From: a virus
Reading direction: 5' to 3' (one strand)
DNA length: 64,000 nucleotides
Virus record (IMG/VR): IMGVR_UViG_3300035696_000001
The notes beneath the pieces are model-generated. The model saw nothing but the letters and a program-made list of their open reading frames with translations. It did no database searches and was not told the origin of the DNA. Positions 3,161 to 63,125 of this stretch are shown here, in pieces; the stretch's first letter is position 1; the number at the start of each line of letters is the position of its first letter. The position numbers and the translations under genes were made by a program.

Positions 3161-3217
3161 TAATCGTTCGCATAGACGGGAAACCTAAGCGCGAAAACCG
3201 TGCATTTGTGGGAAACA

Positions 3218-4803: not shown

Positions 4804-4808
4804 TTCAT

Positions 4809-5489: not shown

Positions 5490-5492
5490 GGT

Positions 5493-6161: not shown

Positions 6162-6162
6162 G

Positions 6163-10802: not shown

Positions 10803-10848
10803 TCAATTTAAGCCTCAAATTAGGGCTTGAAAGTCTGCAACATAGGAT

Positions 10849-12431: not shown

Positions 12432-12439
12432 TGAAACGA

Positions 12440-16122: not shown

Positions 16123-16123
16123 T

Positions 16124-19676: not shown

Positions 19677-19809
19677 GTGCCCTCACTTTCTTTTCGCGGT
19701 AACGGCGTGCTTTCTCTGCTCCAGTCAACGGTCTCTCACCTATGCGACGATAAGTACGGTGTCCTCCTATCCTCGCGGAGCCACATGTACGTGTAGTAGA
19801 CCTTGTCCA

Positions 19810-22749: not shown

Positions 22750-24174
22750 ATGGCATCACTCAACGCTGCAACCCGTACCGCAAAGACCCCGCTCCGCACC
22801 GCCGAGGGCGGCAGGGCGGTCGGCATCGGCAAGGTCGCGCAGCTTCAGCGCCTGCTGAACGCCTGCCTCCTGTGGGAGGACAACTTCTACTCGGACGGCA
22901 AGAGCGTCGCCGACCTCATGCGCGAGCTTGTGCGCGAAGTCCCAGCCGAGAAGGTCGCGGAGCTTGCGATCAAGGCCCGCGAGGAGCAGAAGCTCCGCCA
23001 TGCCCCGCTGCTCATCGTCTACGAGATGACGCTCGCCTCGAAGGCTCACCGCGAGCTTGTCGGGGAGACGCTCACCCGCGTGATCCAGCGCCCGGACGAG
23101 ATCACCGAGTTCGTCGCCATCTACTACAAGCTCGGCGGCGGGAAGCGCCCGCTCTCGAAGCAGGTCAAGAAGGGCCTTGCCGCTGCCTTCAACAAGTTCA
23201 ACGAGTATGCGCTCGCAAAGTACAACCGCGACAAGGACGTCAAGCTCGCGGACGTGCTGGCGCTCGTCCACGCCAAGCCGAAGGACAGGGAGCAGGGCCT
23301 CCTCTTCGCGAAGCTTGCGAACAAGGACCGCCTGCCGAAGAAGACCAAGTTCGCGCAGTTCCCGGTGGCCGACACCTACCGCTCGCTCGCGAAGAACTTC
23401 AAGGGTCTGGAGACCCCGGACACTTGGGAGGTCGCGCTCTCTGGCGGCGCGGACAAGAAGGAGGCCTTCGAGCGCCTCATCCGCGAGGACAAGCTCGGCG
23501 GCCTCGCGATGATCCGCAACCTGCGCAACATGCAGGAGGCGGGCGTCTCCGACGCGGTCATCAAGCAGGGCCTTGCGCAGATGAACGCCGAGCGCGTGCT
23601 CCCGTTCCGCTTCATCGCGGCGGCGAAGTACGCCCCGAAGTTCGAGGCGCACCTTGAGGAGGCGATGTTCAAGTGCCTTGAGGGGCACCCGAAGCTGCCG
23701 GGCAAGACCGTGCTGCTCGTGGACGTTTCCGGCTCGATGGATCAGCATGTTTCCTCGAAGTCCGACCTGATGCGCGTGGACGCTGCCGTCGCCCTTGCGA
23801 TGCTCCTCCGCGAGGTCGGCGAGGACGTGGTCGTGTATTCGTTCTCGGAACGGGAAGTCCTCGTCCCGACCCGGCGCGGGTTCGCCCTCGCCGAGGCGAT
23901 CAAGGGGTCGCAGCCCCATTCGGGCACGTACCTCGGCCGCTCCGTGACCGCCGTTGCCCGCGCCGAGGGCGACGCCGACCGCGTCATCGCGATCTCGGAC
24001 GAGCAGGCGCACGACAACGTCTCGAACCCATTCCGCAAGACCGAGTCGAAGGCGTACATGATAAACGTGGCAAGCGAAGCTCACGGAGTCGGATACCGTA
24101 ATGGTTGGAATCACATCGATGGATGGTCTGAGGCTGTGGTAGACTACGTAGTTGCTGAAGAGGCAACAAAATAG
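22750..24174 (+). CDS. rsr: Ro60/Rsr ortholog (TROVE domain + vWA/MIDAS)
   Basis: N-terminal TROVE-like region (LLWEDNFYSDGKSVAD..HAPLLIVYEM). C-terminal vWA domain with the MIDAS motif VLLVDVSGSMD. The overlapping ORFs 22743..23657 and 22756..24114(-) are frame artefacts. Confidence 0.8.
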   Translation: MASLNAATRTAKTPLRTAEGGRAVGIGKVAQLQRLLNACLLWEDNFYSDGKSVADLMRELVREVPAEKVAELAIKAREEQKLRHAPLLIVYEMTLASKAHRELVGETLTRVIQRPDEITEFVAIYYKLGGGKRPLSKQVKKGLAAAFNKFNEYALAKYNRDKDVKLADVLALVHAKPKDREQGLLFAKLANKDRLPKKTKFAQFPVADTYRSLAKNFKGLETPDTWEVALSGGADKKEAFERLIREDKLGGLAMIRNLRNMQEAGVSDAVIKQGLAQMNAERVLPFRFIAAAKYAPKFEAHLEEAMFKCLEGHPKLPGKTVLLVDVSGSMDQHVSSKSDLMRVDAAVALAMLLREVGEDVVVYSFSEREVLVPTRRGFALAEAIKGSQPHSGTYLGRSVTAVARAEGDADRVIAISDEQAHDNVSNPFRKTESKAYMINVASEAHGVGYRNGWNHIDGWSEAVVDYVVAEEATK

Positions 24175-29816: not shown

Positions 29817-30902
29817 GTGGGCGAGTTTACCGAGCAACGGTTTGATTATTCTGCGGGACGCGAAGATGCCCCTGAATTGACTATTATGGTGGGGATCAGC
29901 GGCTCGGGGAAATCTACGCTCGTTAAGCAATGGATAAACCGTGGGCGTGGCGACATCGTGCGCCTGAACCGGGACAGCTTGCGTGCCATGCTGTATATAG
30001 ATGTGCCTTGGAGTAATAATTTGGAGAACTTAACGCGTGACGTGCAAAAGCACGCTGCGATTTTAGCGCTCCAACGGGGTAAGGATGTGATTATTGATGA
30101 TTGTAATCATCTTCGTCAAGTTCGTCAAAAATGGGAAGAGTTTGCCAAGGAAAACCGGGCGAAGTTTCGTATCGTAACAATGACTACAGACCTCGACGTT
30201 TGCATCAAGCGGGATTCCAAGCGCGAGGGTAAGGAAAAAGTTGGCGAGGGTGTGATTCGCCGCCAGTACAAGGATTTGCATGCTTTGGACAGGACTTCTA
30301 GGAAGGAAACGGCTCCGGCGAAGCTGACCCGCCCGTACTTCGAGCGCACCGAGTACCTCAAGAACGGTGGGTGGGTCACCCGCCTGCCCAACGCCAAGTG
30401 GGTGCTGGTGGACGTTGACGGCACGCTGGCGAACCATGTCGGCGTGCGCGGCCCCTACGACGAGTCCCGAGTGCTTGAGGATTCGGTGTGGGAGCCTGTC
30501 GCCGAGATGGTGCGCTCGCTGTACCCTAGCCACAACGTCTGCGTGGTGTCCGGCCGCCACGACTTTTGCGGCGACGACACGTGCGACTGGCTGGAGATGA
30601 ACGCCGTCCCGTTCGACCACATACTGATGCGGTACAGCGGGGACAACCGCTCTGACATTGTCATCAAGCAGGAGCTTCTCGACGAGCTTTCGGCGGTGAT
30701 CGGCAAGGAGAGCATAGCGTTCGTGATCGACGACCGCCCTCGGGTCTGCGAGATGTGGAGGAGCAACGGCCTCGCGGTGAAGCAGGTTTTCGCCGGGGAG
30801 GTCTTGGAAAACCCGACTCTTAAACATGCGGACGGATGCGCCTATGAGAAGCAAACGGGCTACCGGCGCTGCCCGGACTGCGGGGCTTTAGAGTATTTTT
30901 AG
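29817..30902 (+). CDS. pnkp: Polynucleotide kinase-phosphatase (T4 Pnk/PseT-like)
   Basis: N-terminal P-loop kinase GISGSGKST. C-terminal HAD 3'-phosphatase LVDVDGTLA..VVSGR. Same domain order as T4 Pnk. GTG start with GGAGG SD. Confidence 0.8.
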   Translation: MGEFTEQRFDYSAGREDAPELTIMVGISGSGKSTLVKQWINRGRGDIVRLNRDSLRAMLYIDVPWSNNLENLTRDVQKHAAILALQRGKDVIIDDCNHLRQVRQKWEEFAKENRAKFRIVTMTTDLDVCIKRDSKREGKEKVGEGVIRRQYKDLHALDRTSRKETAPAKLTRPYFERTEYLKNGGWVTRLPNAKWVLVDVDGTLANHVGVRGPYDESRVLEDSVWEPVAEMVRSLYPSHNVCVVSGRHDFCGDDTCDWLEMNAVPFDHILMRYSGDNRSDIVIKQELLDELSAVIGKESIAFVIDDRPRVCEMWRSNGLAVKQVFAGEVLENPTLKHADGCAYEKQTGYRRCPDCGALEYF

Positions 30903-32315: not shown

Positions 32316-33434
32316 ATGAAGCTTTTACTCAAGAATATCCTGCCCTTCGACCTGTTCAGGCGCATGCTTGACGAGGGATACGTCCGCTCGCAGGTGCATC
32401 CCCTTTATCCTGAGTTGGTTGTCTTCAACTACACCGAGGCGGCCCAATTTGACCGTGCGTGGAATGAGGCGACCAACGTGTGCCGCGGCCTGGTCGTGCG
32501 GCTCGCAAACGGCGTGCTGGACGACGACGCCGAGGTGTTGGCGCGGCCTTTCAACAAGTTCCATAACCTGAACACTGCCTACGTGCCGGAGACTATGGAG
32601 GCGAGCCTGCCGGACGAGGCACCGCTTGTGACCACGAAGCTTGACGGCTCGATGGGCATCGTGTATTCGTACGACGGTCAATGGTGGGTCGCGACTCGCG
32701 GGTCGTTCGACTCGGATCAGGCACGCCGGGCGACAGCGTGGTACCGCCAGCACATAGCCGTGGGGTTTCCCCAGAACTGGCCCGACGGCGTTACGCCCGT
32801 GTGCGAGATCATCTACCCGGAGAACCGGATCGTCGTGGACTACGACTTCGAAGGATTGGTGTTGCTCTCGATGATCGAGAACGCAACCGGGCGCGAGCTT
32901 GCCCGCGACGAGGTGGAGGCATGGGCGAGAGTCAACGTGCTCCAGATCGTTGATAAGTTTGACAAGACGCTAGCGGAGTGCGCGGCTGAGAACGCGCTGA
33001 ACGAGGAGGGGTACGTTTTGACTTACTCGAACGGCGTGAAGGTGAAGGTGAAGTTCGCGGAGTACGTGCGGCTCCACCGCATCCTTACTGGGTTGAACCC
33101 GAAGGCGATCTGGGAGATGCTTGCCCAGAATTTCGGGGCGGGGGTGGATGCGATCCTTGCAGACCCGAAGATGCCCGTCACCTTCATCGAATGGTTCAAG
33201 GGGTGGGTGGATCAGCTTCGCAGGAAGTACGCGGAGATCGAGCGGGAGGCGCAGGCTGTGTTCGCCGCGCGTCCGCAGTCGCCCGTCCGCAAGGATCAGG
33301 CGCTCTACTTCATGCAGACGCCGCAGCACAAGTCTGTCCTGTTCGCAATGCTCGACGGCAAGGACTACGCCGGGATCATTTGGGACCGCATTGCGCCGAA
33401 GGGCAACCAGACGTTCAAGAAGGACGGAGAATAA
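32316..33434 (+). CDS. rnl: RNA ligase (T4 Rnl-like, ATP-dependent)
   Basis: Motif I TTKLDGSMG (KxDG), motif IV EEGYVL and motif V VKVKVKF. Partner of Pnkp. Confidence 0.7.
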   Translation: MKLLLKNILPFDLFRRMLDEGYVRSQVHPLYPELVVFNYTEAAQFDRAWNEATNVCRGLVVRLANGVLDDDAEVLARPFNKFHNLNTAYVPETMEASLPDEAPLVTTKLDGSMGIVYSYDGQWWVATRGSFDSDQARRATAWYRQHIAVGFPQNWPDGVTPVCEIIYPENRIVVDYDFEGLVLLSMIENATGRELARDEVEAWARVNVLQIVDKFDKTLAECAAENALNEEGYVLTYSNGVKVKVKFAEYVRLHRILTGLNPKAIWEMLAQNFGAGVDAILADPKMPVTFIEWFKGWVDQLRRKYAEIEREAQAVFAARPQSPVRKDQALYFMQTPQHKSVLFAMLDGKDYAGIIWDRIAPKGNQTFKKDGE

Positions 33435-33618: not shown

Positions 33619-34995
33619 ATGAAGAAATCTACGGTCTTTTGGATGGTCGTGGCCGCCCTCGCTGTCCGCATCGCTTTCATGGTGGCGTTTGATACGTATC
33701 ACTTCGTTGGCGTAGACGACATGACCAAGGTCGGTGAAACGACGAACATCGCGGCGTCCATCGCCAGGGGGCACGGATTCAGTTCACCGTTCGGCGGCGA
33801 ATACACGGGGCCGACAGCTTGGATTGCCCCCGTCTATCCGTACTTCATTGCCCTTGTGTTCCACTTCTTTGGGATATTCTCGAACGCCTCAGCGGCAGTC
33901 GTTTTCACGATTCAAGCACTGTTTTCCGCCTTGACTGTCATTCCGATTTTGGGCATCGCCAATAAAACTGTCGGGAAGCGTTCCGGTTTGGTAGCCGCTT
34001 GGACATGGACTCTTTTCCCTTGGTTTAGCAAATGGGCATTAACTTGGGAGTGGGAAGTCAGCTTGAGTGCGTTGCTCCTCTCCTTAATCGTTTGGTACAT
34101 GCTCAGTCTGGAAAAGGCAGCCGCCGTTAAGTCGTGGGCTGGGTTTGGAATCCTAGAGGGATTCGCTCAGCTAGTCAATCCGGCACTGAGCGCCGTTCTC
34201 CCGGTTGCATTTGCGTGGCAGGTCTACAAACTGCGATTCAACCGCAAAGAGTGACTCAAGCCGGTCGTGGCGCTGCTGGCGTGCGTCGCCACAATAACAC
34301 CTTGGGTAGTGCGAAATCGCGTTGTGTTCGGACAATGGGTGTTCCTGCGCGGCAACTTCGGTTACGAGTTCGCCCTTGGCAACTACCATAACAGCTTCGG
34401 GCGCGGGTGGGGAGGGTTTCACCCTTCGGGTAACTTGCGCGAATACGACGACTACAAGCGCATGGGCGAGGCGGCTTACATCGAATCCCATAAAGAAAAA
34501 GGCCTCCAGTTTGTGCGCCAGTACCCGGTTGAATTCGTTACGCTAACAGCGAAACGGGTTTCCTACTTTTGGGATGGGAGCGCCGTCGGTTACCGGGCAC
34601 CCGTCGCCAAGCATTGGATTCCGTCCAGCTTCGGCGTGATCTCATTATTGCTGCTTCCAGCCCTGCTGATTACGTACAGGAATCGGGTACCGGCATGGCA
34701 AGCGTTCTTCGGTGTGTTTCTGCTGTACCCGGCACCCTATTATCTTACGTTCAGTCAATTGCGTTACCGGCACGCCGTTGAGCCTCTCATGGTAATTCTA
34801 ATCTCTTACGCCGTGGTCAACGCCATAACTGCGATCTATCAAAGTTTTTTAGGTTTGCGTCTTCCTAGCCTTTTCGGGGGACTCCGCTGTATACTACCGA
34901 CGAAAGCAGCGACGTCTGCGGCACCCGCTGCCCGAAGTCGGAGAAATCCGAAGGGCAAACGTCCTGCAAATTTTATGCTCAAGGACTCGTTATGA
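33619..34995 (+). pseudogene. GT-C fold membrane glycosyltransferase (ArnT/PMT-like) interrupted by a single in-frame TGA at 34252
   Basis: ORFs 33619..34254 and 34267..34995 are in the same frame, separated only by TGA 34252..34254 (NRKE*LKPVVALLA). Together ~455 aa with multiple TM helices and a first-loop VGVDD..GE acidic motif, typical of ArnT/PMT_2. May be a readthrough/recoded gene, a pseudogene or a sequencing error. Confidence 0.45.
34876..34896 (+). promoter_or_regulatory. Repeated promoter-like motif copy 2 (GGGGGACTCCGCTGTATACTA)
   Basis: Same 30-nt element as 33571..33600. Lies ~95 nt upstream of the CCA-enzyme gene start. Confidence 0.3.
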
Positions 34996-36317
34996 GTTGG
35001 AAGCGAGAAAATTTCATCTCGTCATTCCAGATTGCCGCGCACGCCAAGGTGATGTACAAGCTTGAAAACAAGGGCTTCGAAGCTTTCCTTGTCGGCGGCT
35101 GCGTGCGCGACCGGCTTCTCCAACGGCAATCCAGGGACTTCGATGTGACGACCGACGCCACGCCCGACCAGATTCGTGCCATCTTCCCTCACACCATCCC
35201 GGTCGGCGCGAAGTTCGGCGTCGTGGTCGTGCTGATGGACGGCGTGCAGGTCGAAGTTGCAACGTTTCGAAGCGACGGGACTTACACTGACGGTCGGCGA
35301 CCGGACGAAGTCACGTACAGCAGGAACGCAAAGGATGACGTCGTCCGCCGCGATTTCACCATGAACGGCTTGCTCATGGACTCCCTCGGCGACATTATCG
35401 ACCACGTTGACGGTCAGGAAGACATCAAGCACGGAATCATCCGCGCCATCGGCGACCCAAACGTGCGCTTCGCGGAGGATGCGCTCCGCATGATGCGGGC
35501 TGTCCGCTTCGCGGCGCAGCTTGGCTTCAAGATCGAGGAAAAGACCCTTGAAGCGATCAAGAGCAACGCCCGGCTCCTGTCCGCCATCAGCCGGGAGCGC
35601 ATCGCGATGGAGCTTTTCAAGATGCTTTCCGCGCCGTTTCCGCTCAAGGGGATCGTGCCTTTCATTGCGACGGGGCTGTTCCGCTATGCCTTGCCGGAGC
35701 AGTTCCCCGACCATGTGAACATGGCGCGAACCATACAGCGGTTCGGCACGTTCGAGGCGAAGGACGCCATGCTCGGCATGGCTATGCTATTCGCCGACAT
35801 CAACGACTTCTACTGTGGGGGGCTTGCGGATTACCTCAAGCTGTCCAACGAGCAAAAAGACGAGCTTATTTGCATGAAGAGCCACGTTCATAATTTCCAG
35901 CACCACTTAACCGGGGCGTACCGCATGACTGAGGCGCGGATCAAACGCAACCTGCGGTATCCGGGCGTCAGGCTGGCGCTGGAGATCATGACGCAGGACG
36001 AGGTCATGGGCAAGACCGGCTTCGGCATCGAGGCGCTGATGGCGTTCGTGCTCAAGGTCAAGGCGTACAAACCCGAGGAGATCAAGCCGAAGCCGCTGGT
36101 GACGGGCAAGGACTTGATTGACGCTGGCATCCCACCGGGGCCGATCTATACGAGCATCCTGTTCGACATTGAGAGCCACCAGCTTAACGGCGTGTTCACG
36201 ACGAAGGAGCAGGGCATGGAGTTCGTCCGCGAGCGCGTACGCCAAGGAGCGGGTCTGCATGGGCTTGAGTGGGTTTATACGGGCTTGTCCGCAACGGAAG
36301 CGCGGGAGCTAGAATGA
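34992..36317 (+). CDS. cca: tRNA nucleotidyltransferase (CCA-adding enzyme), class II
   Basis: Head-domain motifs LVGGCVRDRLL, RDFDVTTDA, VATFRSDG and DVVRRDFTMNGL (RRD). Confidence 0.8.
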   Translation: MSWKRENFISSFQIAAHAKVMYKLENKGFEAFLVGGCVRDRLLQRQSRDFDVTTDATPDQIRAIFPHTIPVGAKFGVVVVLMDGVQVEVATFRSDGTYTDGRRPDEVTYSRNAKDDVVRRDFTMNGLLMDSLGDIIDHVDGQEDIKHGIIRAIGDPNVRFAEDALRMMRAVRFAAQLGFKIEEKTLEAIKSNARLLSAISRERIAMELFKMLSAPFPLKGIVPFIATGLFRYALPEQFPDHVNMARTIQRFGTFEAKDAMLGMAMLFADINDFYCGGLADYLKLSNEQKDELICMKSHVHNFQHHLTGAYRMTEARIKRNLRYPGVRLALEIMTQDEVMGKTGFGIEALMAFVLKVKAYKPEEIKPKPLVTGKDLIDAGIPPGPIYTSILFDIESHQLNGVFTTKEQGMEFVRERVRQGAGLHGLEWVYTGLSATEARELE

Positions 36318-49944: not shown

Positions 49945-50625
49945 GTGAACAATTGGTATGACATCCTAAAAATGACCCAAGTCGGTCACAGGCTTTTCGT
50001 GGGCGGATACGCCCAAGCGACGGACTTGGCCAAGGACAATCCCCACAAGATCACTGCGGTTTTGTGCGTCCATCAGGTGATGGACTACCCCAAAGACCCC
50101 GGCATTGTCTACATGCACATCCCGTTCGCTGACGGCGAGGGCATTCCGCCCAAGGTGTTTGTGAGATGCCTCGGCTGGCTGAAGTACATGTACGAGAACG
50201 GGCATACGATCTACATCCACTGCGCCGCTGGCATTTCCCGGTCGGTGGCGATAATGGCAGCCTTCATGCACTACGAGGGCATTGCGGAATTCAACGAGGC
50301 GCTCGACCAAATTCGCCTGTGCCGCCCGAACGCCAGCCCCGCGCCGAACGTGCTCAATTCCGCGAGGCAGATGCTGGGCGTGTACCCCTACGACGGGTCA
50401 TATGACGCCGAGCCGGAACACCAGAAAGCTGTTCACAGCGATCTGATCGAAGCAGCGCAAAACCGCCGTGCCGCCGAGCAGCACCCGGACGAGAATTGTC
50501 CGATGCGGCAGTTTCTCCTGTCGGGAACGGAAAGCAACGTGCCGCGCCACGAGATTCCTTGTTCCTGCGAGTCGCTCCAAACGCCGCTGGACATCGCAAG
50601 GCAGAAGGACGAAGCACCCCAATGA
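49945..50625 (+). CDS. Dual-specificity protein phosphatase (DUSP, CX5R)
   Basis: Active-site P-loop IHCAAGISRSVAIMAAFM. Confidence 0.8.
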   Translation: MNNWYDILKMTQVGHRLFVGGYAQATDLAKDNPHKITAVLCVHQVMDYPKDPGIVYMHIPFADGEGIPPKVFVRCLGWLKYMYENGHTIYIHCAAGISRSVAIMAAFMHYEGIAEFNEALDQIRLCRPNASPAPNVLNSARQMLGVYPYDGSYDAEPEHQKAVHSDLIEAAQNRRAAEQHPDENCPMRQFLLSGTESNVPRHEIPCSCESLQTPLDIARQKDEAPQ

Positions 50626-50799
50626 GCATTGGGCTATGCCCTACGGGCGAGCATTACGACGACTGGTGCTGCAAGGTGCACGACCACGGCATCGAGGACG
50701 CTCTTTGCGTTTGCGATGAGCTTCGGGAAAATGCTGAGGATTTTGCCAGGGCGCTAAAGACCGCCTTCTCTCCCCGTCGCATCAAACCCAGTGGGAGCA

Positions 50800-51440
50800 A
50801 TGGTGACACCTGAACAAATCCTCGACGAAGCCTTCGACAACGAAGGCGTTGCCCAGAACCATCGCGACGACATCAAAGCCTACCTTCATGCCCTGAAGAA
50901 CCGCGACCCGAAGACCTATGAGCACAGCATCCGCGTCGGCGTGCTGGCCAGCAGGGTTGCTCTTTATGCCGCCAAGCCGGGAATCAGCGCGAGGATGCTC
51001 CTCTGGGCTGGGTTGCTGCACGACATAGGCAAGACTCTCGTCCGCCCGGAAGTCCTCACCAAGACGTCGAACTTCACGCAAGAGGACTACGCCGCCATAG
51101 AGCCGCATGTCCAGTACGGCTGGGACATGCTGAATCGCGTCCACGACTGGACGGCGTACATCATCGTTAGGCACCACCAGTTCAGGGCTAAACCCTATCC
51201 CGCCGAGCTTCCCCCGCTGCCGGAGTACCTGCGCGACAAAGCCGAGATAATCCAAGTTGCCGCCCGCCTGTGTTGGCGCTTGCAGATTTTTTTGACGCCC
51301 TCACCCACAGGGATAACGACAGGAACGGCAACAAGCCCTTTACAGCTAGGGAAAAACGCGAAATCTACATGCGGGATAACGCCGACCAGAGAGAACTCAT
51401 TGAGCTTCTTGAATCAGTTGGCGTGCTGAAGTTCTCATGA
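50800..51440 (+). CDS. HD-GYP/HDIG-type HD-domain phosphohydrolase with apparent frameshift near 51270-51285
   Basis: YEHSIRVG..LLHDIGK..HHQ in frame A up to ~51280. The canonical C-terminal IADFFDALTHRDNDRNGNKPF..REIYM continues in the -1 frame, which ends at TGA 51438..51440. No single intact frame covers both parts. Confidence 0.5.
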
Positions 51441-51683
51441 CGCAAGACGAATGGCGGGAAATCATAGAGATTCTTTTTGACCATTGGAACCCGTTCCCGA
51501 GCCGGTCTTATTGTGAAAAAGTGGGCTGGGAGGCGAATCCAGACGGCACCGTCGAAACACCGTTCGGATGCATCCCCACCAGCGACCTTTGCGAAATCCG
51601 GGAGCTTGAAGCGTTATACCGAAAATGACCCTAGCCAAGCGAATAAGACTGTTTTTCAGGCGCTTAGGTAGGGGAAAACCTGC

Positions 51684-52154
51684 ATGGCAGTAGAAATCAA
51701 AGCGCCCGGAAAGTACGATACCTCAGCACGCTACACGATCTTCCTTGCAGGAGCCATAGACCAAGGGAAGGCGGAGAACTGGCAGGAAAAGGTCGTCCGA
51801 GCGCTGGATGAGTTTGACGTCACCGTTCTGAACCCACGTCGGGACGACTGGGACGACTCTTGGGAACAGACTGCCGATAATCCTCAGTTTCGGGAGCAAG
51901 TAGAATGGGAGCTTGATGCGCAAGAAGCGGCTGATATGATCGTTTTCGTTTTTACCGCCGACTCGAAGGCCCCGATCACCTTCCTTGAATTCGGGCTGTT
52001 CGCCCCGAAGAAGGACGCGGTGGTCTGCGCCGAGGAGGGCTTCTACAGGCAGGGGAACCTCGACATCGTGGCCGAGCGCCACAAGGTGTCGATGTACCAC
52101 AACCTCGACGAGATGATAGCCGATCTGCAAACAGTTTTGAGGGAGAAGGCTTGA
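51684..52154 (+). CDS. Nucleoside 2-deoxyribosyltransferase-like protein
   Basis: YTIFLAGAIDQG N-terminus and FLEFGLFAPKKDAVVC with a candidate catalytic Glu. Weak family assignment. Confidence 0.4.
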   Translation: MAVEIKAPGKYDTSARYTIFLAGAIDQGKAENWQEKVVRALDEFDVTVLNPRRDDWDDSWEQTADNPQFREQVEWELDAQEAADMIVFVFTADSKAPITFLEFGLFAPKKDAVVCAEEGFYRQGNLDIVAERHKVSMYHNLDEMIADLQTVLREKA

Positions 52155-52984
52155 TGGGCCAGATGGTGTATGTCTTGACGACTTTCGAGGGCACCGGCAA
52201 GCACAAGGAATGGAGACCCGTGGCCGTGGTCTCCAACCCTGACCTCGCGAGCCAGTGGTACGAGTACGGCACGAACGTTGACTGGATTCCGTTTGAGCTT
52301 GACGACGTCAAGAACATCTCGCCGGAAAACATGCCGACCTTCCACCCCCGCGAAACCACGCCCGGCGAGGCGAGAGCCATCGAACTTAGCAAAAAGATGG
52401 AGGCGACGATCCAGCGGATGCAGAAGATCATCGACGACCAGGAAGCGCTCATCAAGAAGCTGACGCGGGGGAAGAAAGCCGGGCACGAGTCGATGCTAAA
52501 AGGCGTCAATGTACTGAACATCTCAGACCCGGAGAACCCAGCCCCCAACCCTTTCGTCCACAACTCGGGGACTGCCGAGGAGGATACAATCCCGCCAAAG
52601 CCGATGGAAGGCGGTTCGCGACCATTTCCCCCGACGTTGGACGCGCAAGGGATCGCCGATTACATCGAGACCTACGCGGTGTACCCGGTGGACAACGAGT
52701 TCGTGTACGAGAAGTTCCGGGGCAGCCACGCAGTTCTCAAGCTGGTGCCGATAGCCAGCCTCCGCGAGGGCGGTCGCGAGCAGAATCTCCGAAGCAAGAA
52801 GATCGAGGACAAGTACCTGAAGCAGAGTCTCAAGACGCAGCCCCCCGCCGTGGTCGAGGACGGGGAGGTCTTGGACGGCAACCACAGGCTCCGAGCCAAC
52901 AAGCGGAGGGGTTTGACGCACATGTGGTGCTATGTTGTTATGGGGGATGAGAATGGTGACACTGACGCCAACGGCAGTAATTAA
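52151..52984 (+). CDS. ParB-like nuclease domain protein
   Basis: C-terminal VVEDGEVLDGNHRLRANKRRG (DGxHR ParB N-terminal-domain motif). Confidence 0.5.
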   Translation: MMGQMVYVLTTFEGTGKHKEWRPVAVVSNPDLASQWYEYGTNVDWIPFELDDVKNISPENMPTFHPRETTPGEARAIELSKKMEATIQRMQKIIDDQEALIKKLTRGKKAGHESMLKGVNVLNISDPENPAPNPFVHNSGTAEEDTIPPKPMEGGSRPFPPTLDAQGIADYIETYAVYPVDNEFVYEKFRGSHAVLKLVPIASLREGGREQNLRSKKIEDKYLKQSLKTQPPAVVEDGEVLDGNHRLRANKRRGLTHMWCYVVMGDENGDTDANGSN

Positions 52985-53282
52985 GATCAAGCAGATCGCG
53001 GAGCAGCAAGACCCGAAGCCTCCTGCGGTGCGCATCGGCGTGCGCGGCGGGGGATGCAGTGGTTTTAGCTACGCCATGGCGTTCGACCCTGAGCCTGCTG
53101 CGGGCGAAAATGACAACGAGTTCGACCTCGACGGCTTGAAGGTGCGGGTGGACAACATGTCGGCCATGTACCTTGAAGGCTGCGAGATCGACTACGTGGA
53201 GGCGCTGGACGGCGCGGGCTTCAAGTTCAACAACCCGAACGTGAAGAGCACGTGCGGCTGCGGAAGCTCGTTCAGCGTATAA
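52953..53282 (+). CDS. iscA: IscA/ErpA-type Fe-S cluster insertion protein
   Basis: RIGVRGGGCSGFSY...NPNVKSTCGCGSSFSV carries the three conserved Cys. Start at the internal Met MVTLTP with GGGGGATGAGA SD. Confidence 0.8.
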   Translation: MVTLTPTAVIKIKQIAEQQDPKPPAVRIGVRGGGCSGFSYAMAFDPEPAAGENDNEFDLDGLKVRVDNMSAMYLEGCEIDYVEALDGAGFKFNNPNVKSTCGCGSSFSV

Positions 53283-53291
53283 TGGGGAAGC

Positions 53292-53954
53292 GTGAATTTC
53301 CCGTACAACAAAGTCCTTGAGATCAGGGCGCAGTACCAAGCCGGGAAGCTCGACCGCGAGGCGGCGAAGGAACGGCTTGCGTACCTGCTTGACTTGAAGG
53401 ACGACAGCGACTTCTGCGAGGATGCCGTCAAGGCTCAGGTCGATAGCGGCGGCTGGGGGGAGCTTTGGTCAAAAAACTATCGGAGCTACGGCCCGCTCCT
53501 GCGGCTGTCCGATGTGTGCAACGTCCTGAGGCTGTGGGCTAGGGTGTATGCCGCGCCGCTTCCCGGCGACGACGAACACAAAAGGCAGGACCGCGAGAAG
53601 CTGCAAGAGACGGCGAGCTACGTGGACATGCAAATCTCGAAAAGCTGCCTGCTCGACCGCCTCTTCCTCCAAGAGGAAGGGCTGCGCACTGTCCCTTGCC
53701 CCGAGCACAAAGGGTACTGGAGCGGCTGCAACTGGGACGCCCTTGGCTGTGCGTGCCGCAATGGGGCGAACGTGACGGGCTGGCTCCCTGCCGGGGAATC
53801 CACCGGGTACTCCGACGACCCCGAAGCCCCGCCGTGCGATTTCTGCGGCAAGCCGCCGCTCAGGCAGGGGCTGTGGAGCCGCCGGATAGACGGCAAGCAT
53901 GGGCACCCCGAGTGCCTGGACAAAAATCCCATGGCCCCGAAGGACGCAGCATGA
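53292..53954 (+). CDS. Hypothetical Cys-rich protein (possible metal/Fe-S client)
   Basis: 220 aa with CPEHKGYWSGCNWDALGCACRNG and CDFCGKPP...HPECLDKNP. Confidence 0.45.
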   Translation: MNFPYNKVLEIRAQYQAGKLDREAAKERLAYLLDLKDDSDFCEDAVKAQVDSGGWGELWSKNYRSYGPLLRLSDVCNVLRLWARVYAAPLPGDDEHKRQDREKLQETASYVDMQISKSCLLDRLFLQEEGLRTVPCPEHKGYWSGCNWDALGCACRNGANVTGWLPAGESTGYSDDPEAPPCDFCGKPPLRQGLWSRRIDGKHGHPECLDKNPMAPKDAA

Positions 53955-54286
53955 TCGGCGCGGGCACACACATCCCAACTCCGAAGGACGCCCCCACGGG
54001 GGGCTGGGACACGGGGGGCTGGGACACGGGGGGCTGGGACAACATGTACTGCTACAGCGTGCCCGCGACGCCTGAGCGCCCAGACCCACGCAAAAACCCC
54101 AAGAATTGGGCGCTGTGGTTCCGGGAATTCCTGGCGCTGGTCTGCCTCCGTTGTGAACAGCCCACAATTCGAGCTACGAGGATCGTTTATGATTGGCTCG
54201 CCGGGCAAGTGCGCTGCCGATCCGGCACCCTGCCGACCCGTGAATGGAAAATGAAGGATTGGGTTCAAGCGCTGAGAGCTTCCTGA
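53951..54286 (+). CDS. Hypothetical protein with GGWDT x3 repeat
   Basis: ATGA-coupled. Encodes TGGWDTGGWDTGGWDN from a 15-bp tandem repeat. Confidence 0.4.
   Translation: MIGAGTHIPTPKDAPTGGWDTGGWDTGGWDNMYCYSVPATPERPDPRKNPKNWALWFREFLALVCLRCEQPTIRATRIVYDWLAGQVRCRSGTLPTREWKMKDWVQALRAS
53996..54045. repeat. 15-bp tandem repeat x3 (GGGGGGCTGGGACAC)
   Basis: Direct perfect repeats visible in the sequence, lying in-frame within the CDS 53951..54286. Confidence 0.8.
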
Positions 54287-54666
54287 TGGCGTACAGCGAA
54301 AAAGTTCTGGATCATTACAACAACCCCCGCAATGTGGGTTCGCTGGACAAGTCCAGCCCGGATGTGGGCACGGGCTTGGTCGGAGCGCCGGAGTGCGGGG
54401 ACGTGATGAAGCTTCAGATCAGGGTAAACGGAGCCGGGGTCATCGAGGACGCCAAGTTCAAGACCTTCGGCTGCGGCTCGGCAATTGCCTCGTCCTCGCT
54501 TGCGACCGAGTGGGTCAAGGGCAAGACCGTGGACGAGGCGCTCCAGATCAGGAACACCGAGATCGTCAGGGAGCTTTCCCTTCCCCCGGTCAAGATTCAC
54601 TGCTCAGTGCTTGCCGAAGACGCGATCAAGGCCGCCATTGCGGATTGGAAGAATAAAAAACAGTAG
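54286..54666 (+). CDS. iscU: IscU Fe-S cluster scaffold protein
   Basis: MAYSEKVLDHYNNPRNVGS...GAPECGDVMKLQI...FGCGSAIASSSL...PPVKIHCSVLAEDAIKAAIADWK. Near-collinear with E. coli IscU (~75-80% identity by eye), including the three Cys and LPPVK. Confidence 0.9.
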   Translation: MAYSEKVLDHYNNPRNVGSLDKSSPDVGTGLVGAPECGDVMKLQIRVNGAGVIEDAKFKTFGCGSAIASSSLATEWVKGKTVDEALQIRNTEIVRELSLPPVKIHCSVLAEDAIKAAIADWKNKKQ

Positions 54667-54754: not shown

Positions 54755-55099
54755 ATGTACAAATACCCGAAGTACCCACGCCGCCCCCACCCTGGATGCC
54801 CGGCGAATCAGGAGCCTTGGATCGACCCGTGGTGGGAGTCTCAATGCATCCTTAACAAGCCCCTTATGATAGTGATACCACCGGAAGGCATCCATCTTCC
54901 CTGCCCGGTGCACCCGGAAGGTCACCACATCTACGGCTCCGGCATCGTGTGGTGCGAAAACAACCTGCCCGACCCGGCCAACAAGCCGTGGTGCGAGTAC
55001 GAGCACGACCCCTCCAAGGACTTAACTTACGACTCAACGAGGCCTTGCGGGACGGCAACAGGCTTTACCGGAAAAGACACCTTCAAATTTTCGATGTAA
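54755..55099 (+). CDS. Hypothetical Pro/Trp/Cys-rich protein
   Basis: 114-aa ORF. Confidence 0.4.
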   Translation: MYKYPKYPRRPHPGCPANQEPWIDPWWESQCILNKPLMIVIPPEGIHLPCPVHPEGHHIYGSGIVWCENNLPDPANKPWCEYEHDPSKDLTYDSTRPCGTATGFTGKDTFKFSM

Positions 55100-55118: not shown

Positions 55119-55556
55119 TTAGACGGGTCTATTTCGTTTCAACCATCCACGCTGCTTCCGGGAAGCTATTCGCTTTGCAACATGAGCGGCTGTCTGCTTA
55201 CGGCCAAGATTCAGTGGATTGCCCTTTAAGGAAATGCTATTTTTTGCGTTAATCTGCCTTCGAATTTCTGGTGTGATGGCTTTAGCTCCTTCTTTACCTC
55301 CTGCCCTGCTGTTGCAAATAAAGTGGGAAAACGCGATATTGGTGAGGTCCCAAAAGAGCGCTGGGTCAACATCAAGCCAACGTTGTTTATGTTCGATACT
55401 AAAGTCTTTCACTTGTTCAATCTGTTTACCGCAGCGGTAGCATGTGTCTAACCCTAGACGTTGAACCAACGAAAAGAGAATGATACGTTCAAGTCGTTTG
55501 CTTGCTCTCCCGTGATCCATCCCAAGTTGCATTTGATATTTGACTTTGAGTTCCAT
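55119..55556 (-). CDS. HNH endonuclease, homing-endonuclease-like
   Basis: CYRCGKQI..SIEHKQRWLD..NIAFSHFICN. Opposite strand in an AT-rich islet. Confidence 0.6.
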   Translation of the reverse strand: MELKVKYQMQLGMDHGRASKRLERIILFSLVQRLGLDTCYRCGKQIEQVKDFSIEHKQRWLDVDPALFWDLTNIAFSHFICNSRAGGKEGAKAITPEIRRQINAKNSISLKGNPLNLGRKQTAAHVAKRIASRKQRGWLKRNRPV

Positions 55557-56488: not shown

Positions 56489-56986
56489 ATGGTGGACGAC
56501 CGTACCTACCTCGATACCTGCTATGAGTACGCCAAACAGACCACGTGCGTAAAGGCGCGGGTTGGCGCTTTGGTGGTATCTGCCGGTCAAGTTGTTGGCG
56601 CAGGTTACAATCACCCGCCTAATGTTGCGTTCCTCGACTGCGCCAAACTGTGCGCCGGAGGCATCAGGCAGGGCGTCAAGTCCGGCACCCGACTGGAATT
56701 GTGTTACGCCGTCCACGCTGAGCAGTGGGCTATCCATGAGGCGGGCCCGCTTGCCAAGGGCGCGACGCTGTACGTCGCCTCGTTCGATGACAGGTGGAAC
56801 AAGCGCCTGAAGGATTCTTCCCTCCCGCTGGGGCACCCCATGCATTCTTTCTATTGTTCGATGTGTGCCCGCGCCTGCTGGATGGCGGGCATCGACCGCA
56901 TCGTCACTGACGGCGTCAGCGGCATCGTGGAGTTCACCCCCGAGGAAATCTGGAAAACGTCATACGGCGTTGCCGGGAGTATTTGA
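56489..56986 (+). CDS. Cytidine/deoxycytidylate deaminase family protein
   Basis: HAEQWAI (HxE zinc-ligand motif) and SFYCSMCARA (CxxC). Confidence 0.6.
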   Translation: MVDDRTYLDTCYEYAKQTTCVKARVGALVVSAGQVVGAGYNHPPNVAFLDCAKLCAGGIRQGVKSGTRLELCYAVHAEQWAIHEAGPLAKGATLYVASFDDRWNKRLKDSSLPLGHPMHSFYCSMCARACWMAGIDRIVTDGVSGIVEFTPEEIWKTSYGVAGSI

Positions 56987-57470: not shown

Positions 57471-58246
57471 AAACAAAGCGTCCGGTAAACCAAGGAGCGG
57501 AGGAATTTCTTTACGTTGAGATTCCTGTCTTAGACAAGGGGTATATAAAGCTTGTGGATTACATGGGCAACGACGACTCGGTTGTGGGTGCCGCACGGGT
57601 CAGCTATGCGAAAACCGCCAACCCCGAGGAGGCGGAGAAGAACGCCAAGCTCATTAGCTACCTGATGCGGCATAAGCACACGTCGCCGTTCGAGCAATGC
57701 ATCCTGACCTTCGAGTGCAAAATGCCCATTTTCGTGGCCCGGGAGTGGGTCAGGCACCGCACCGCGAGGCTGAACGAGATGTCGGGGCGCTATACCCAGC
57801 TTCCCCAAGAAGTCTATACCCCCAGCCGCGAACGCATAATGGGGCAGGACAAGGCGAACAAGCAGGGAAGCGCAGGCGAAGTATCTGAAGACATTAAAGA
57901 CAGCTTTTTGGCGACGCACGGCTCCGCCACTCAAGAAGTCTTTCAACATTATCAAGCCTACATCGACGGCGGCATCGCCAAGGAGGTCGCCCGGATCGAC
58001 CTCCCGCTGAGCACCTACACGAAATGGATATGGCAGATGGACTTGCACAACCTGTTCCACTTTCTCCAGCTTCGGATGGCCCCGAACGCACAGTGGGAAA
58101 TCAGGCAGTACGCGAACGCAATCGCCCAAGTCGTGGAGAAAAGCTTCCCCGCCGCCTGGGACGCCTTCCAAGAGCACGTTTTGAATGCCGTGACTATACC
58201 GATTGCCGAGTACCGACAATTGACAGAGCGCAGAGGAGACAAATAG
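57467..58246 (+). CDS. thyX: Flavin-dependent thymidylate synthase ThyX
   Basis: ThyX motif RHRTARLNEMSGRY. GTG start in a GTGA overlap with the Nudix gene. The ORF-track 5' extension is junk. Confidence 0.85.
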   Translation: MKTKRPVNQGAEEFLYVEIPVLDKGYIKLVDYMGNDDSVVGAARVSYAKTANPEEAEKNAKLISYLMRHKHTSPFEQCILTFECKMPIFVAREWVRHRTARLNEMSGRYTQLPQEVYTPSRERIMGQDKANKQGSAGEVSEDIKDSFLATHGSATQEVFQHYQAYIDGGIAKEVARIDLPLSTYTKWIWQMDLHNLFHFLQLRMAPNAQWEIRQYANAIAQVVEKSFPAAWDAFQEHVLNAVTIPIAEYRQLTERRGDK

Positions 58247-59388
58247 TGCCTGCGAAGATTAAAAGTCTTGTGGGGCAAACTTTTGGCGAACTTACTGTGG
58301 TTCGCATGGGCGAGCGTACCGGCAAAAGAAATCGAGTGACTTGGGTGTGTCGTTGTTCGTGCGGAAATGAGGTACAAGTAACCGCTTCTAACCTCATAAG
58401 AGCGGGGAAATTCAGCCATACGTGTAAGAATCATGCTGGATATGGGCTTGTGGGAAAACGTTTTGATCGTTTATTTGTGCTTCGTCGCTCGACAAAACGC
58501 ACGCGATATGGCGGGGCGTACTGGGAGTGTCGCTGCGATTGCGGGAATACCGCTGTTGTCTTAAAACAAGCTCTTATTAACGGTTCTATACGATCCTGTG
58601 GCTGTCTGAAAAAGGAGAAAGAGACTAGGTTTGAGGGCATAAGCGGTAATTATTGGGGTTCCCTAAAGGCAAGCGCTCTAAAACGCAGACTAGAGTTTTC
58701 TATCAGCATTAAGCAAGCATGGGACTTATACAACAGCCAGAAGGCCCGTTGCGCCTTGTCTGGGGTACCGATTTTGTTTGGGCATAATCAAACAGCATCA
58801 CTGGATAGGGTTGATAGCAACCTTGGCTATGTGTTGGGGAACGTGCAATGGCTTCACAAGGATGTGAACAGAATTAAAAGCGATTTTTCGGAGTTCGATC
58901 TTACCCAATGGTGCGCCAGAATTTATTTGACTTCTTTGAAGAACTTGAACGGAGACGACAAGTGGGATATGAGGTTTTTGCAGCTAGCCAGATTTATGGC
59001 CTCATTCTCCAAAGACCCGTCCACGCAAACGGGGGCGGCTATAATTCGCCCCGACCGAACTGTAGTGTCTGTGGGCTATAATGGGCTTGCTCGCGGGGTA
59101 CAGGACAGCCCTGAACGTCTCAATAACCGTGAGATCAAATACAAAGTTATCTGCCATTGCGAACGCAATGCCATTGTGTTTGCTCGGCAAGACGTAGGCG
59201 GATGTACTCTATATACGTGGCCCTTCATGTCGTGTGCGGCTTGTGCTGCTATAGTCATCCAAGCCGGGATCAAGCGCTGCGTAGCCCCGCGCAACGACAA
59301 TCCCCGCTGGCAGGAAGACTTCAAGCTGGCGCAGCAGCAGTTCGCCGAAGCCGGAGTGACGATGGACTTTACCGACTCTATGGAGTAG
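58246..59388 (+). CDS. HNH endonuclease fused in-frame to dCMP deaminase
   Basis: GTG start in a TAGTG overlap. N-terminal ~230 aa carry two FGxLTV..W.CRC.CG modules and an HNH motif (paralog of 24240..24785), in lower-GC DNA. C-terminal ~150 aa are a dCMP-deaminase domain (AAIIRPDRTVVSVGYNG, HCERNAI, SCAACAAIVIQAGIKR) in high-GC DNA. Confidence 0.6.
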   Translation: MPAKIKSLVGQTFGELTVVRMGERTGKRNRVTWVCRCSCGNEVQVTASNLIRAGKFSHTCKNHAGYGLVGKRFDRLFVLRRSTKRTRYGGAYWECRCDCGNTAVVLKQALINGSIRSCGCLKKEKETRFEGISGNYWGSLKASALKRRLEFSISIKQAWDLYNSQKARCALSGVPILFGHNQTASLDRVDSNLGYVLGNVQWLHKDVNRIKSDFSEFDLTQWCARIYLTSLKNLNGDDKWDMRFLQLARFMASFSKDPSTQTGAAIIRPDRTVVSVGYNGLARGVQDSPERLNNREIKYKVICHCERNAIVFARQDVGGCTLYTWPFMSCAACAAIVIQAGIKRCVAPRNDNPRWQEDFKLAQQQFAEAGVTMDFTDSME

Positions 59389-61199: not shown

Positions 61200-61425
61200 A
61201 AGCCCGAGTCACATTGACGCCCGCTCTCCTGAAGCTGCTGCTGGACGGGAAGCCCCTCCGGTTCAAGTTCCCAAAGGCGGCGACAGAGGTTGAAATTACC
61301 ATTGAAGAAGACATTTTTGCCAAGTTTGACCGCATTTTTTCCAAGCTTTGGCACAAGGCGCTGGACAAGCTCGACAAGCTGACCTAAAAACCCAATTGGC
61401 GATCCCTTAGTAGGACAGGACGCCT

Positions 61426-62016
61426 ATGCCGCGCTACATCCAAGTCAGTTCCGAACGCTTCTCCGAAATGCATGAAACGCTTGCGCTTATCGAGGCTGTT
61501 GACAGGGACGGCTTTTACAATCTCGACCTGTACATCTACGGTCTGACCACCAACCCCCAGATTTTGGACGCCGCCAAGGAAGCCATCGCTGAGGAAGCAG
61601 AGATCGCCGAACAGGACGTCCAGCTTGCCGAGGTCGCTGTCGCCATTCCCTTGAGTTCCGACATCATCTACTACTTTGCCGGAAGCGGGCTGACCCTTCG
61701 GCGCGAGGACTTCGCTTACATGGGCGGGGGCGGCGAAGGCGTCCGCACCATGAGCTTTGCCTTTGCCCACTACCGCCCCAAGGCAACCTTCAGCTATTTC
61801 AGCAAGCTGGCGCTGGCGAATTCCAGCGCTTGGCTGGACGACTTCCTCCGCAAGGAAGGCTCCGGCAAGCCCGCCACGGTCACCCAGAACGTCCGCCGCA
61901 CCGAGGAAGCCACCCAACCCGGCGTTCCGCCCGCGCCGCAACCAGCAGCCCCGCAGGGGCGGATGCCGAAGCAGACTTCTCTCGACCAGAAATTTTTCGA
62001 CGAGTTTTTGGACTAG
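61426..62016 (+). CDS. Hypothetical protein
   Basis: 196-aa ORF. The overlapping 550-aa minus ORF 61384..63036 is rejected. Confidence 0.45.
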   Translation: MPRYIQVSSERFSEMHETLALIEAVDRDGFYNLDLYIYGLTTNPQILDAAKEAIAEEAEIAEQDVQLAEVAVAIPLSSDIIYYFAGSGLTLRREDFAYMGGGGEGVRTMSFAFAHYRPKATFSYFSKLALANSSAWLDDFLRKEGSGKPATVTQNVRRTEEATQPGVPPAPQPAAPQGRMPKQTSLDQKFFDEFLD

Positions 62017-62070
62017 ACACCCCCAACTTATTTTTGTATCATCCTTGCCGAGTCTGGCATCATAGAGACT

Positions 62071-62979
62071 ATGGCGACCAATTTCCGCAAAGATGCCTTT
62101 GGCGACCGCATGAAGCGGTACGAAGAGGCGACGCGTTTCGTTCTTCCCAGACGCACTTACACCATCCTTCGGGTTGACGGTCGGGCGTTCCACTCGTGGA
62201 CGCGGGGCCTCGCCAAGCCCTACGACCCCAACTTCATGGAGTGCATCGACAGCGCGGCGGTGGTCTTGTGCGAGCAGATTTCCGGCGCACAGTTCGCCTA
62301 CGTGCAGTCCGATGAGATCAGCGTGCTCGCCGTGGATTTCCTCGCAGTCGATACCCAAGCGTGGTTCGACGGCAATGTGCAGAAGTGGGCGAGCATCGGA
62401 GCGGGCATTGCTACGATGGCATTTAATAATATGGTTGTGAGCATGCACCACCGGGCGCTCGACGCACTCGAAGAGCACACGAGCAAGACGCTCCCTGAGG
62501 AGCGCAGCAAGGACTGGGTGAACCCCTACAGTGAGATTTCCAGGAAGGCACCCAACGCAGTTTTTGACGCCCGCGTGTTCACCGTCCCGGACCCAATCGA
62601 GGTGGAAAATTATTTCGTCTGGCGGCAGCAGGACGCGGAGCGCAACTCCGTCATGATGCTCGCTCGCGCTCATGCCAGCCACAAGCAGCTTGCGGGCAAG
62701 AAGCGGGCCGACCAGCACGAGATCATCCACAAGGCGGGCGATAACTGGGCGAAGCATCCTGTGCGGTTCAAGCACGGGGCTGTCGTCCGCAGGTCCGGTG
62801 TGAAGGACTGGGGCAAGGATGTGGGTCGGCAGCCCTTCTCGGAGAACTATTTCGTCGGCAACTGGTTCGTGGACAACGACACCCCGATGTTCACCAAGGA
62901 TCGGAAGTACCTCCGCAGTCTCGTCCCCATCGTCTGGAACGACGACCTGTTGGTCAGGAAGGCAGCGGCGGGTGGCTAA
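62071..62979 (+). CDS. Thg1-like protein (tRNA-His guanylyltransferase family 3'-5' nucleotidyltransferase)
   Basis: ILRVDGRAFHSW..KPYDPNFMECIDSAA...AYVQSDEISVL matches the Thg1/TLP catalytic core (RxDGxxF, SDE). Confidence 0.75.
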   Translation: MATNFRKDAFGDRMKRYEEATRFVLPRRTYTILRVDGRAFHSWTRGLAKPYDPNFMECIDSAAVVLCEQISGAQFAYVQSDEISVLAVDFLAVDTQAWFDGNVQKWASIGAGIATMAFNNMVVSMHHRALDALEEHTSKTLPEERSKDWVNPYSEISRKAPNAVFDARVFTVPDPIEVENYFVWRQQDAERNSVMMLARAHASHKQLAGKKRADQHEIIHKAGDNWAKHPVRFKHGAVVRRSGVKDWGKDVGRQPFSENYFVGNWFVDNDTPMFTKDRKYLRSLVPIVWNDDLLVRKAAAGG

Positions 62980-63125
62980 GAGACTGAAAAAAGCAACGAA
63001 GCGCCGGACATCCGTGGCAGATCGCATTATCGCCATTGCGGAGCGGGAGCGAGAACCGATAGGTTACGGCGAAGACGGTGTGACCCGCGAGGGGTATCAA
63101 AAGATTTTGAGGATTTTAAGGGACA

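Follow-up and report, generated by a model that had tools for sequence, protein, structure and literature searches.

A probable auxiliary Fe-S biogenesis module, IscU plus an ErpA-like carrier, in a huge phage most likely infecting Acidobacteriota

The IMG/VR virus record IMGVR_UViG_3300035696_000001 provides the 64,000-nucleotide stretch of DNA considered here, called the window, which encodes a scaffold protein and an A-type carrier (ATC) of iron-sulfur (Fe-S) cluster assembly. Our finding is that the phage it comes from probably carries a functional auxiliary Fe-S biogenesis module, consisting of a host-type IscU and an ErpA-like carrier. The DNA readable to us is the 64-kb window plus about 10 kb past its right end and about 6 kb past its left end. 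A preliminary description, made from the nucleotide sequence alone, had pointed out the pair and, between them, a Cys-rich protein of 220 amino acids (aa) and a small protein with GGWDT repeated 3 times. All 4 open reading frames (ORFs) are present on the + strand, and together with the gene that follows them they make up this cassette:

52953-53282, + strand: A-type Fe-S carrier, ErpA-like, 109 aa, with CSGF...CGCGSSF
53292-53954, + strand: Cys220, a Cys-rich protein of 220 aa with 10 Cys
53951-54286, + strand: GGWDT-family protein, 111 aa, with GGWDT x3 in its variable N-terminus
54286-54666, + strand: IscU scaffold, 126 aa, its start codon overlapping the preceding stop (TGATG)
54755-55099, + strand: p114, a Cys/His-rich protein of 114 aa with CPHPxCP...CPVHPEGHH

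The genes are tightly packed. The carrier overlaps the gene upstream of it, and the junctions that follow are a 9-nt gap, an ATGA overlap, and the TGATG overlap. A scan for promoters and terminators found no excess of sites over shuffled sequence, and no site inside the cassette.

The gene at 54286-54666 encodes a bona fide IscU. It scores 223.5 bits against NCBIfam TIGR01999, passing the equivalog cut-off of 192.4 and covering model positions 1-123 of 124, and it matches Pfam NifU_N with E = 1.6e-53. Residues 1-125 align without a gap to human ISCU and to E. coli IscU (PDB ID: 2L4X), to which it is about 75% identical. The ligand motifs GAPECGD (GAPxCGD), GCGSAIASSS, and IHCS are intact in the columns of the E. 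coli and human proteins, and the E. coli ligand set C37, D39, C63, H105, and C106 is retained entirely. LPPVK, the motif recognized by HscA, is found at residues 99-103. These results bear out what had been read from the sequence, a near-canonical IscU with 3 Cys and LPPVK, almost collinear with the E. coli protein. The G+C content at third codon positions (GC3) of iscU is 0.80, like that of the adjacent phage genes. None of IscS, HscB, HscA, Fdx, and IscR is encoded at the window locus, the first 4 of which had been noted as absent; this is a feature of the context and not a requirement of the family.

The protein encoded at 52953-53282 matches Pfam Fe-S_biosyn (PF01521, E = 3.2e-21) and passes TIGR00049 with 120.6 bits against a cut-off of 58.8, so that its assignment to the IscA/ErpA type of carrier holds. 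All 3 ligand Cys are present, and CSGF and CGCGSSF align with the structures from Aquifex, H. influenzae, and E. coli. Against the IscA model TIGR02011 it fails, scoring 89.2 where the cut-off is 150.6; against the ErpA model NF010147 it scores 108.1, just below the cut-off of 117. The carriers of phage relatives (112.8-116) and the stand-alone ATCs of hosts (110.8-114.9) also all fall just below 117. Operon IscA proteins score equally under the IscA and ErpA models, and the phage and stand-alone host carriers score best under ErpA. The best PDB matches are to Aquifex AQ_1857 and H. influenzae HI1723, the latter an ErpA/YadR orthologue, with E. coli IscA and SufA behind. On these scores the carrier is best described as ErpA-like.

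Both genes are of Acidobacteriota origin, but from separate places. In a set of 185,579 species genomes, the 80 closest IscU proteins come almost entirely from Acidobacteriota, mostly Terriglobia, with 83-89% aa identity. The phage protein departs from the host consensus at about 14 positions only, and the hosts themselves vary at these. At the DNA level the identity of iscU to host iscU genes is at most 81.5% in the species set scanned, with synonymous divergence (dS) near 1. The preliminary description had called for a phylogeny of IscU. A neighbor-joining tree of 163 IscU sequences places the window protein inside the Acidobacteriota sequences and does not resolve a clean viral clade; 126 highly conserved residues cannot separate one acquisition from several. 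The carrier is 40-48% identical to IscA of Acidobacteriota isc operons and 67-69% identical to stand-alone ATCs of 122-127 aa from Terriglobales, its closest named cellular relatives; one Terriglobales ATC stands alone on a 2.8-Mb contig away from isc genes. Since the carrier matches the stand-alone host ATC and not operon IscA, the pair was assembled from 2 host loci and is not a captured operon fragment. The phage order, carrier then IscU, is the reverse of host iscU-iscA.

Between phage relatives, IscU has a ratio of nonsynonymous to synonymous divergence (dN/dS) of 0.03-0.09, the carrier one of 0.14-0.22, and Cys220 one of 0.15, at dS of about 0.8-2.8. The 3 genes are thus maintained in the viral lineage as working genes under purifying selection, and are not recent passengers. 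IscU and the carrier qualify as viral auxiliary metabolic genes (AMGs), having viral genes on both sides, selection, and a conserved position.

The contig is not a host chimera, which is the possibility that the preliminary description had itself raised against the locus. One JGI contig and one Logan contig match the locus and its neighbors at 100% identity. A 196-kb ENA contig matches over 19.7 kb at 99.92%, and a further ENA sample has the locus too, so that at least 4 independent assemblies reproduce it at 99.9-100% identity. Phage-type genes flank the locus and run on for at least 10 kb past the window. In distant relatives, in which IscU is 82-88% identical, IscU and/or the carrier are at the same position, after genes for a DSP phosphatase, an HD protein, and an NDT-like protein. 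Among the 80 best IMG/VR IscU loci, 79, including the closest relatives, are without IscS, HscBA, Fdx, and IscR, and only 1 has the operon arrangement, whereas the 80 best cellular loci have iscS-iscU-iscA-hscB-hscA, mostly with iscR and often with fdx, apart from 1 or 2 short contigs that lack the flank.

One record has a different structure. Contig L172 (ENA ERZ27256913 k141_1267182, 5050 bp) is essentially identical to window positions 50096-54656 up to nt 119 of iscU, after which it encodes a different IscU of 141 aa and then an IscA of 122 aa, in host operon order. For its right part, no host locus compared is closer than about 80-83% identity. Either the assembly produced a chimera at iscU in L172, or L172 is a true recombinant of phage and host.

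We conclude that the window derives from a huge (>400 kb) tailed phage, with the caveat that genes for capsid, portal, and terminase are absent from the 64-kb window. Its G+C content is uniform at about 57% and its gene set is typical of jumbo phages. That set includes genes for a SNF2 helicase, ThyX, 2 dCMP deaminases, a Nudix protein, an NDT-like protein, and HNH endonucleases; further genes encode a peptide deformylase, a Ro/TROVE protein, PNK, a T4-type RNA ligase, a CCA-adding enzyme, Thg1, and a 20-kb cluster of nucleotide-sugar and glycosyltransferase functions. The left edge of the window falls inside a gene for a 1794-aa protein with a PHROG match to a virion structural protein (E = 1.7e-11). 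The closest IscU-bearing contigs in IMG/VR are 102-463 kb long, and database metadata give contigs with the exact IscU and carrier proteins reaching 436,173 bp and 894,233 bp. The latter length would exceed that of the largest phage genomes reported, to our knowledge about 735 kb, and the record may reflect concatenation, misassembly, or another cause.

INPHARED gave no megablast match to 19 kb of the window, hence there is no DNA-level match among these deposited phages. A relative can be recognized at the protein level in Tunturi_5, a cultured and imaged jumbo myovirus of Acidobacteriota that has a 309-kb genome and comes from tundra soil (PMC11924767). The SNF2 helicases of the 2 phages share 53% identity, and the next 2 genes are in the same order. 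Tunturi_5 homologues are detectable for 11 window genes, so the relationship is distant. No viral contig with a terminase like that of Tunturi_5 was found, in a search by a method that detects close relatives only. The host of the window phage is most likely a member of Acidobacteriota, class Terriglobia.

How the module might work can be proposed from the parts present and absent. During infection, phage IscU would dock on the host cysteine desulfurase IscS, the phage locus having no such gene. The 3 IscU Cys would then hold a [2Fe-2S] or [4Fe-4S] cluster, built with electrons from host ferredoxin, and host HscA/HscB, recognizing the LPPVK that has been kept, would release it. The phage carrier would then hand the cluster to apo-proteins, as ErpA-type carriers of E. 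coli transfer clusters to apo-targets (PMC2682760). The phage would thus provide only the stoichiometric, cluster-holding parts and borrow the catalytic ones, and Fe-S delivery would be raised, or kept up when host isc expression drops or demand grows. Gene identity, intact ligand motifs, selection, ancestry, and viral context are shown, while cluster assembly, partners, expression timing, and clients are inferred; the host-like surface of IscU and the retained LPPVK fit an auxiliary module.

Several observations weigh against such a module. The preliminary description had thought of an Fe-S enzyme of the phage as the beneficiary, but no recognizable Fe-S client (radical SAM enzyme, class III ribonucleotide reductase activase, QueE, or the like) is encoded in the 64-kb window or the approximately 10-kb right flank. 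IscU is dispensable in the clade, since the related contigs L169 and L188 keep the carrier and Cys220 without it, and the cultured relative Tunturi_5 has neither IscU nor the carrier. Through competition for IscS, the ISC pathway of E. coli retards phage lambda (PMC3296357), so that extra IscU is not automatically good for a phage.

The likeliest alternative puts the Cys-rich neighbors at the center: the carrier, with IscU where present, would mainly load a metal cluster onto Cys220 and p114, which would be new Fe-S proteins of the phage. We regard this as possible, if unlikely. It overlaps with an auxiliary module and the 2 are not exclusive, and Cys220 and p114 could act in the nucleotide and DNA-modification gene set. 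The arrangement of the cassette among relatives speaks for it. The order carrier, Cys220, GGWDT-family protein, IscU, p114 is found in the window and in L167/L168, and in L188 without IscU. L169 has carrier, p114, and Cys220 without IscU, and L001 has carrier, IscU, p114, and Cys220; both of these hold their cassette genes within about 2.5 kb. Carrier-Cys220 is, in the loci compared, the most constant link of the cassette, with IscU optional. The flanking of 2 other genes by the pair, which the preliminary description had emphasized, is therefore true of this genome and is not a fixed arrangement, as relatives have the pair adjacent or have no IscU.

Cys220 itself has a helical N-terminal half and an invariant core C136-x2-H139-x6-C146-x6-C153-x-C155 followed by VTGW. 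The 4 Cys and 1 His of this core, invariant across the family, count in favor of the alternative, and most members also carry a C-terminal CxxC...HxHxxC element. About 15 of the 44 homologues of Cys220 appear on a contig with a carrier or IscU match, by a proxy taken from longest-contig records, and the translational coupling of the genes and the dN/dS of Cys220 likewise favor a connection. Against it, neither Cys220 nor p114 resembles a known Fe-S family. The 44 homologues are all unnamed, metagenomic, and without Pfam domains; Cys220 has no match in Pfam, NCBIfam, or PHROGs even at E ≤ 5, its family profile has no PDB sequence match, and tblastn finds none in the phage collection. The Cys/His motifs are equally compatible with zinc sites. 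The AlphaFold model of Cys220 is of moderate confidence, with low confidence or disorder exactly at the Cys core, and a fold search with it gave nothing usable. P0163, a distant homologue of Cys220, has neither carrier nor IscU nearby, and conversely L004 and L005 have the carrier immediately 5′ of IscU, with Cys220 not in their readable DNA.

The case of p114 is similar. It has no family match in Pfam or PHROGs, and its homologues adjoin Cys220 or IscU in L001, L167, L169, and L188. Cys220 and p114 each have a CP[EV]H core, but homology of the 2 cores is not supported (hhalign probability 0.8%), and the lack of detectable homology between the 2 proteins also counts against their being joint clients. 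A stronger form of the idea, in which the cassette is a self-contained phage metalloprotein unit and Cys220, perhaps with p114, is a new Fe-S protein matured by the phage carrier, we hold to be slightly more doubtful. Such proteins might act in the adjacent gene set of NDT-like, HD, ThyX, dCMP deaminase, and Nudix proteins.

The remaining member of the cassette is the GGWDT-family protein. Its GGWDT x3 is coded by a perfect 15-nt tandem repeat in 3.1 copies at 53995-54041 (TRF). In L084, which is 99.92% identical, there are 2 copies against 3, by a single gap, and the product is 106 aa against 111 aa; the copy number of the repeat thus varies among near-identical phages. The family consists of phage-only proteins of about 100 aa with conserved NPKxWAxWFREFL and RCRSGTLPxREWKMKNWxQAL, and amounts to 24 cluster representatives in 1.84 billion proteins. 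P0168, a 2027-aa protein of the representative library, has 13 matched stretches of the conserved domain of this family.

Another role for IscU would not increase Fe-S supply at all. Extra IscU could draw host IscS off from acceptors such as TusA and ThiI, the outcome being altered tRNA thiolation, hence frameshifting and translation, or changes in other sulfur pathways. We consider this highly unlikely. There is a precedent in that competition for IscS between IscU and TusA changes lambda infection dynamics in E. coli (PMC3296357), the surface of phage IscU is essentially host-like, and the phage devotes many genes to repairing and processing tRNA:

22750-24174: Ro/TROVE protein, with a weak VWA match
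29817-30902: PNK with phosphatase
32316-33434: T4 Rnl1-type ligase
34992-36317: CCA-adding enzyme
62071-62979, + strand: Thg1-like tRNA-His guanylyltransferase (Pfam Thg1, E = 1e-23)

Titration of IscS leaves the co-encoded carrier, which acts downstream of IscU, unexplained, and likewise the relatives that have the carrier without IscU. Moreover, every cluster ligand has been kept, under strong purifying selection, and none would be needed by a pure decoy of IscS. As an observation on its own, this full set for RNA repair and tRNA maturation is found in 64 kb without a tRNA gene, whereas Tunturi_5 has 43 tRNA genes.

That host isc DNA was joined to phage DNA by an assembler, or that the contig is cellular or plasmid-like, is extremely unlikely: L172 shows that joins at iscU occur, by assembly or recombination, the window lacks the virion genes named above, and like doubts have been raised over another "jumbo phage" with Fe-S genes (PMC13623518), but the 4 independent assemblies with phage genes on both sides, the reversed gene order, a carrier that is not the operon IscA, the limited DNA identity to hosts with phage-like GC3, the synteny with a cultured, imaged myovirus (PMC11924767), and the adjoining virion-structural-like gene all argue otherwise.

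An auxiliary module supplying clusters thus remains our preferred account, and the surroundings of the cassette in the window can be completed with the following genes:

2408-20481, - strand: sugar and glycan cluster of about 18 kb
52151-52984, + strand: 277-aa protein, directly upstream and overlapping the carrier start by 32 nt
55119-55556, - strand: HNH endonuclease (Pfam HNH, E = 0.0012, below cut-off), between p114 and a gene for a 271-aa protein
56489-56986, + strand: dCMP deaminase, the shorter of 2 paralogues
58024-59388, + strand: dCMP deaminase, the longer paralogue
61426-62016, + strand: 196-aa protein

The 277-aa protein has a DGNHR-type motif (...VLDGNHRLRA...) in its C-terminus, with a weak ParB-like match to phrog_620 (E = 0.0024, residues 211-264) and no Pfam match. 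Its gene is kept upstream of the carrier in L001, L003, L005, L167, and L169; in L169 the DGNHR-type C-terminal part is a separate ORF located after the carrier. The HNH gene is probably a mobile insertion, outside the Fe-S cassette, because the gap between p114 and the 271-aa gene is only 95 nt in the relative L167.

The longer dCMP deaminase has an HNH / endonuclease VII-like N-terminal region, fused to or inserted before the deaminase domain. Opposite Thg1 and the 196-aa protein, the longest ORF is one of 550 aa at 61384-63036 on the - strand; it is a shadow ORF without a family match, and related contigs call the 2 genes on the + strand instead. The glycan cluster encodes nucleotide-sugar epimerases, dehydratases, a GHMP kinase, a SIS/HAD protein, TylF-type methyltransferases, and several glycosyltransferases. 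It adjoins the gene for the 1794-aa virion-structural-like protein (L184, 13760-19144) and may serve glycan synthesis for the virion or for modification of the host surface. A look-up of the epimerase at 2408-3160 (- strand) returned no record.

These findings take the Fe-S biogenesis genes carried by phages beyond marine phages, to huge phages of Acidobacteriota. This soil phylum is dominant but poorly studied, and the first isolates of its phages were reported only in 2025. Assembly of the pair from 2 host loci, and its retention under selection, argue that it brings a real selective benefit and was not picked up by accident as a piece of an operon. The close likeness of IscU to host sequences offers an independent marker for predicting the hosts of these phages. 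The linked Cys-rich orphan proteins are a testable lead to the need of the phage for Fe-S clusters; if the cassette were a self-contained metalloprotein unit, the virus would bring a new Fe-S client together with its delivery system.

The preliminary description called phage-borne Fe-S genes uncommon. That is so only for isolate genomes, with matches in 17 of 50,697 INPHARED records, several of which look like host DNA or unannotated fragments; IMG/VR has at least 596 contigs with an IscU relative, and about 24 of the 79 orphan IscU loci among its best 80 also have a carrier nearby. INPHARED records whose IscU/IscA are of host-like identity include contigs of Acinetobacter phage MD-2021a, a Salmonella Infantis contig, and short "phage" records from Salmonella and E. 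coli. The rarity and novelty implied were overstated also in view of the literature. Among the complete marine viral genomes of Nishimura et al. (2017), 6 have IscU and 14 have an ATC (PMC5332604); HMO-2011-type phages have iscU and erpA (PMC9038755); and a NifU-like protein is found in a Nitrosospira jumbo phage (bioRxiv 10.64898/2026.05.02.722434). Kyanoviridae phage C48C1 (OQ984149) is also among the phages with these Fe-S genes. PHROGs contains phrog_8429, annotated as an AMG, and phrog_17776, matched by the window IscU (E = 5.6e-41) and carrier (E = 2.8e-32), although these families are silent on pairing, host lineage, and linked Cys-rich genes.

The marine phages are the closest in gene content. 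They too have an orphan, host-derived IscU and/or ATC without IscS, HscBA, or Fdx, which has been read as Fe-S supply, and their IscU is 74-80% identical to that of the window. Their IscU groups, however, with gammaproteobacterial homologues, and their genomes are 30-180 kb. In the window phage both genes are of Acidobacteriota type, the genome is put at >400 kb with the closest cultured relative from tundra soil, and the genes are embedded in a cassette with clade-specific Cys-rich proteins. Compared with the Acidobacteriota isc operon (iscR-iscS-iscU-iscA-hscB-hscA-fdx), phage IscU has the same length, ligands, and LPPVK, but of the operon the phage has the scaffold only, with the order reversed and interrupted by 2 phage-only genes. 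The ErpA/ATC-I carriers described by Vinella et al. (2009, PMC2682760) share the stand-alone type and the 3 conserved Cys, and ErpA is the best-scoring equivalog for the phage carrier and the stand-alone Terriglobales homologues; the phage carrier is just under the ErpA cut-off, the likeness being judged by profile score.

Tunturi_5 (PP885688) resembles the window phage as a jumbo myovirus of Acidobacteriota with similar G+C, the SNF2 helicase, and a syntenic block of 3 genes, and differs in having no homologue of IscU, the carrier, Cys220, the GGWDT-family protein, or p114. It does encode a protein annotated as "Fe-S-cluster redox domain-containing protein". Earlier records already include iscU and A-type carrier genes in phages, mainly from marine viromes and also in PHROGs and other jumbo phages, and what is new here is the host lineage, that of huge phages of Acidobacteriota, the origin of the pair from 2 loci, and the linked Cys-rich orphan genes.

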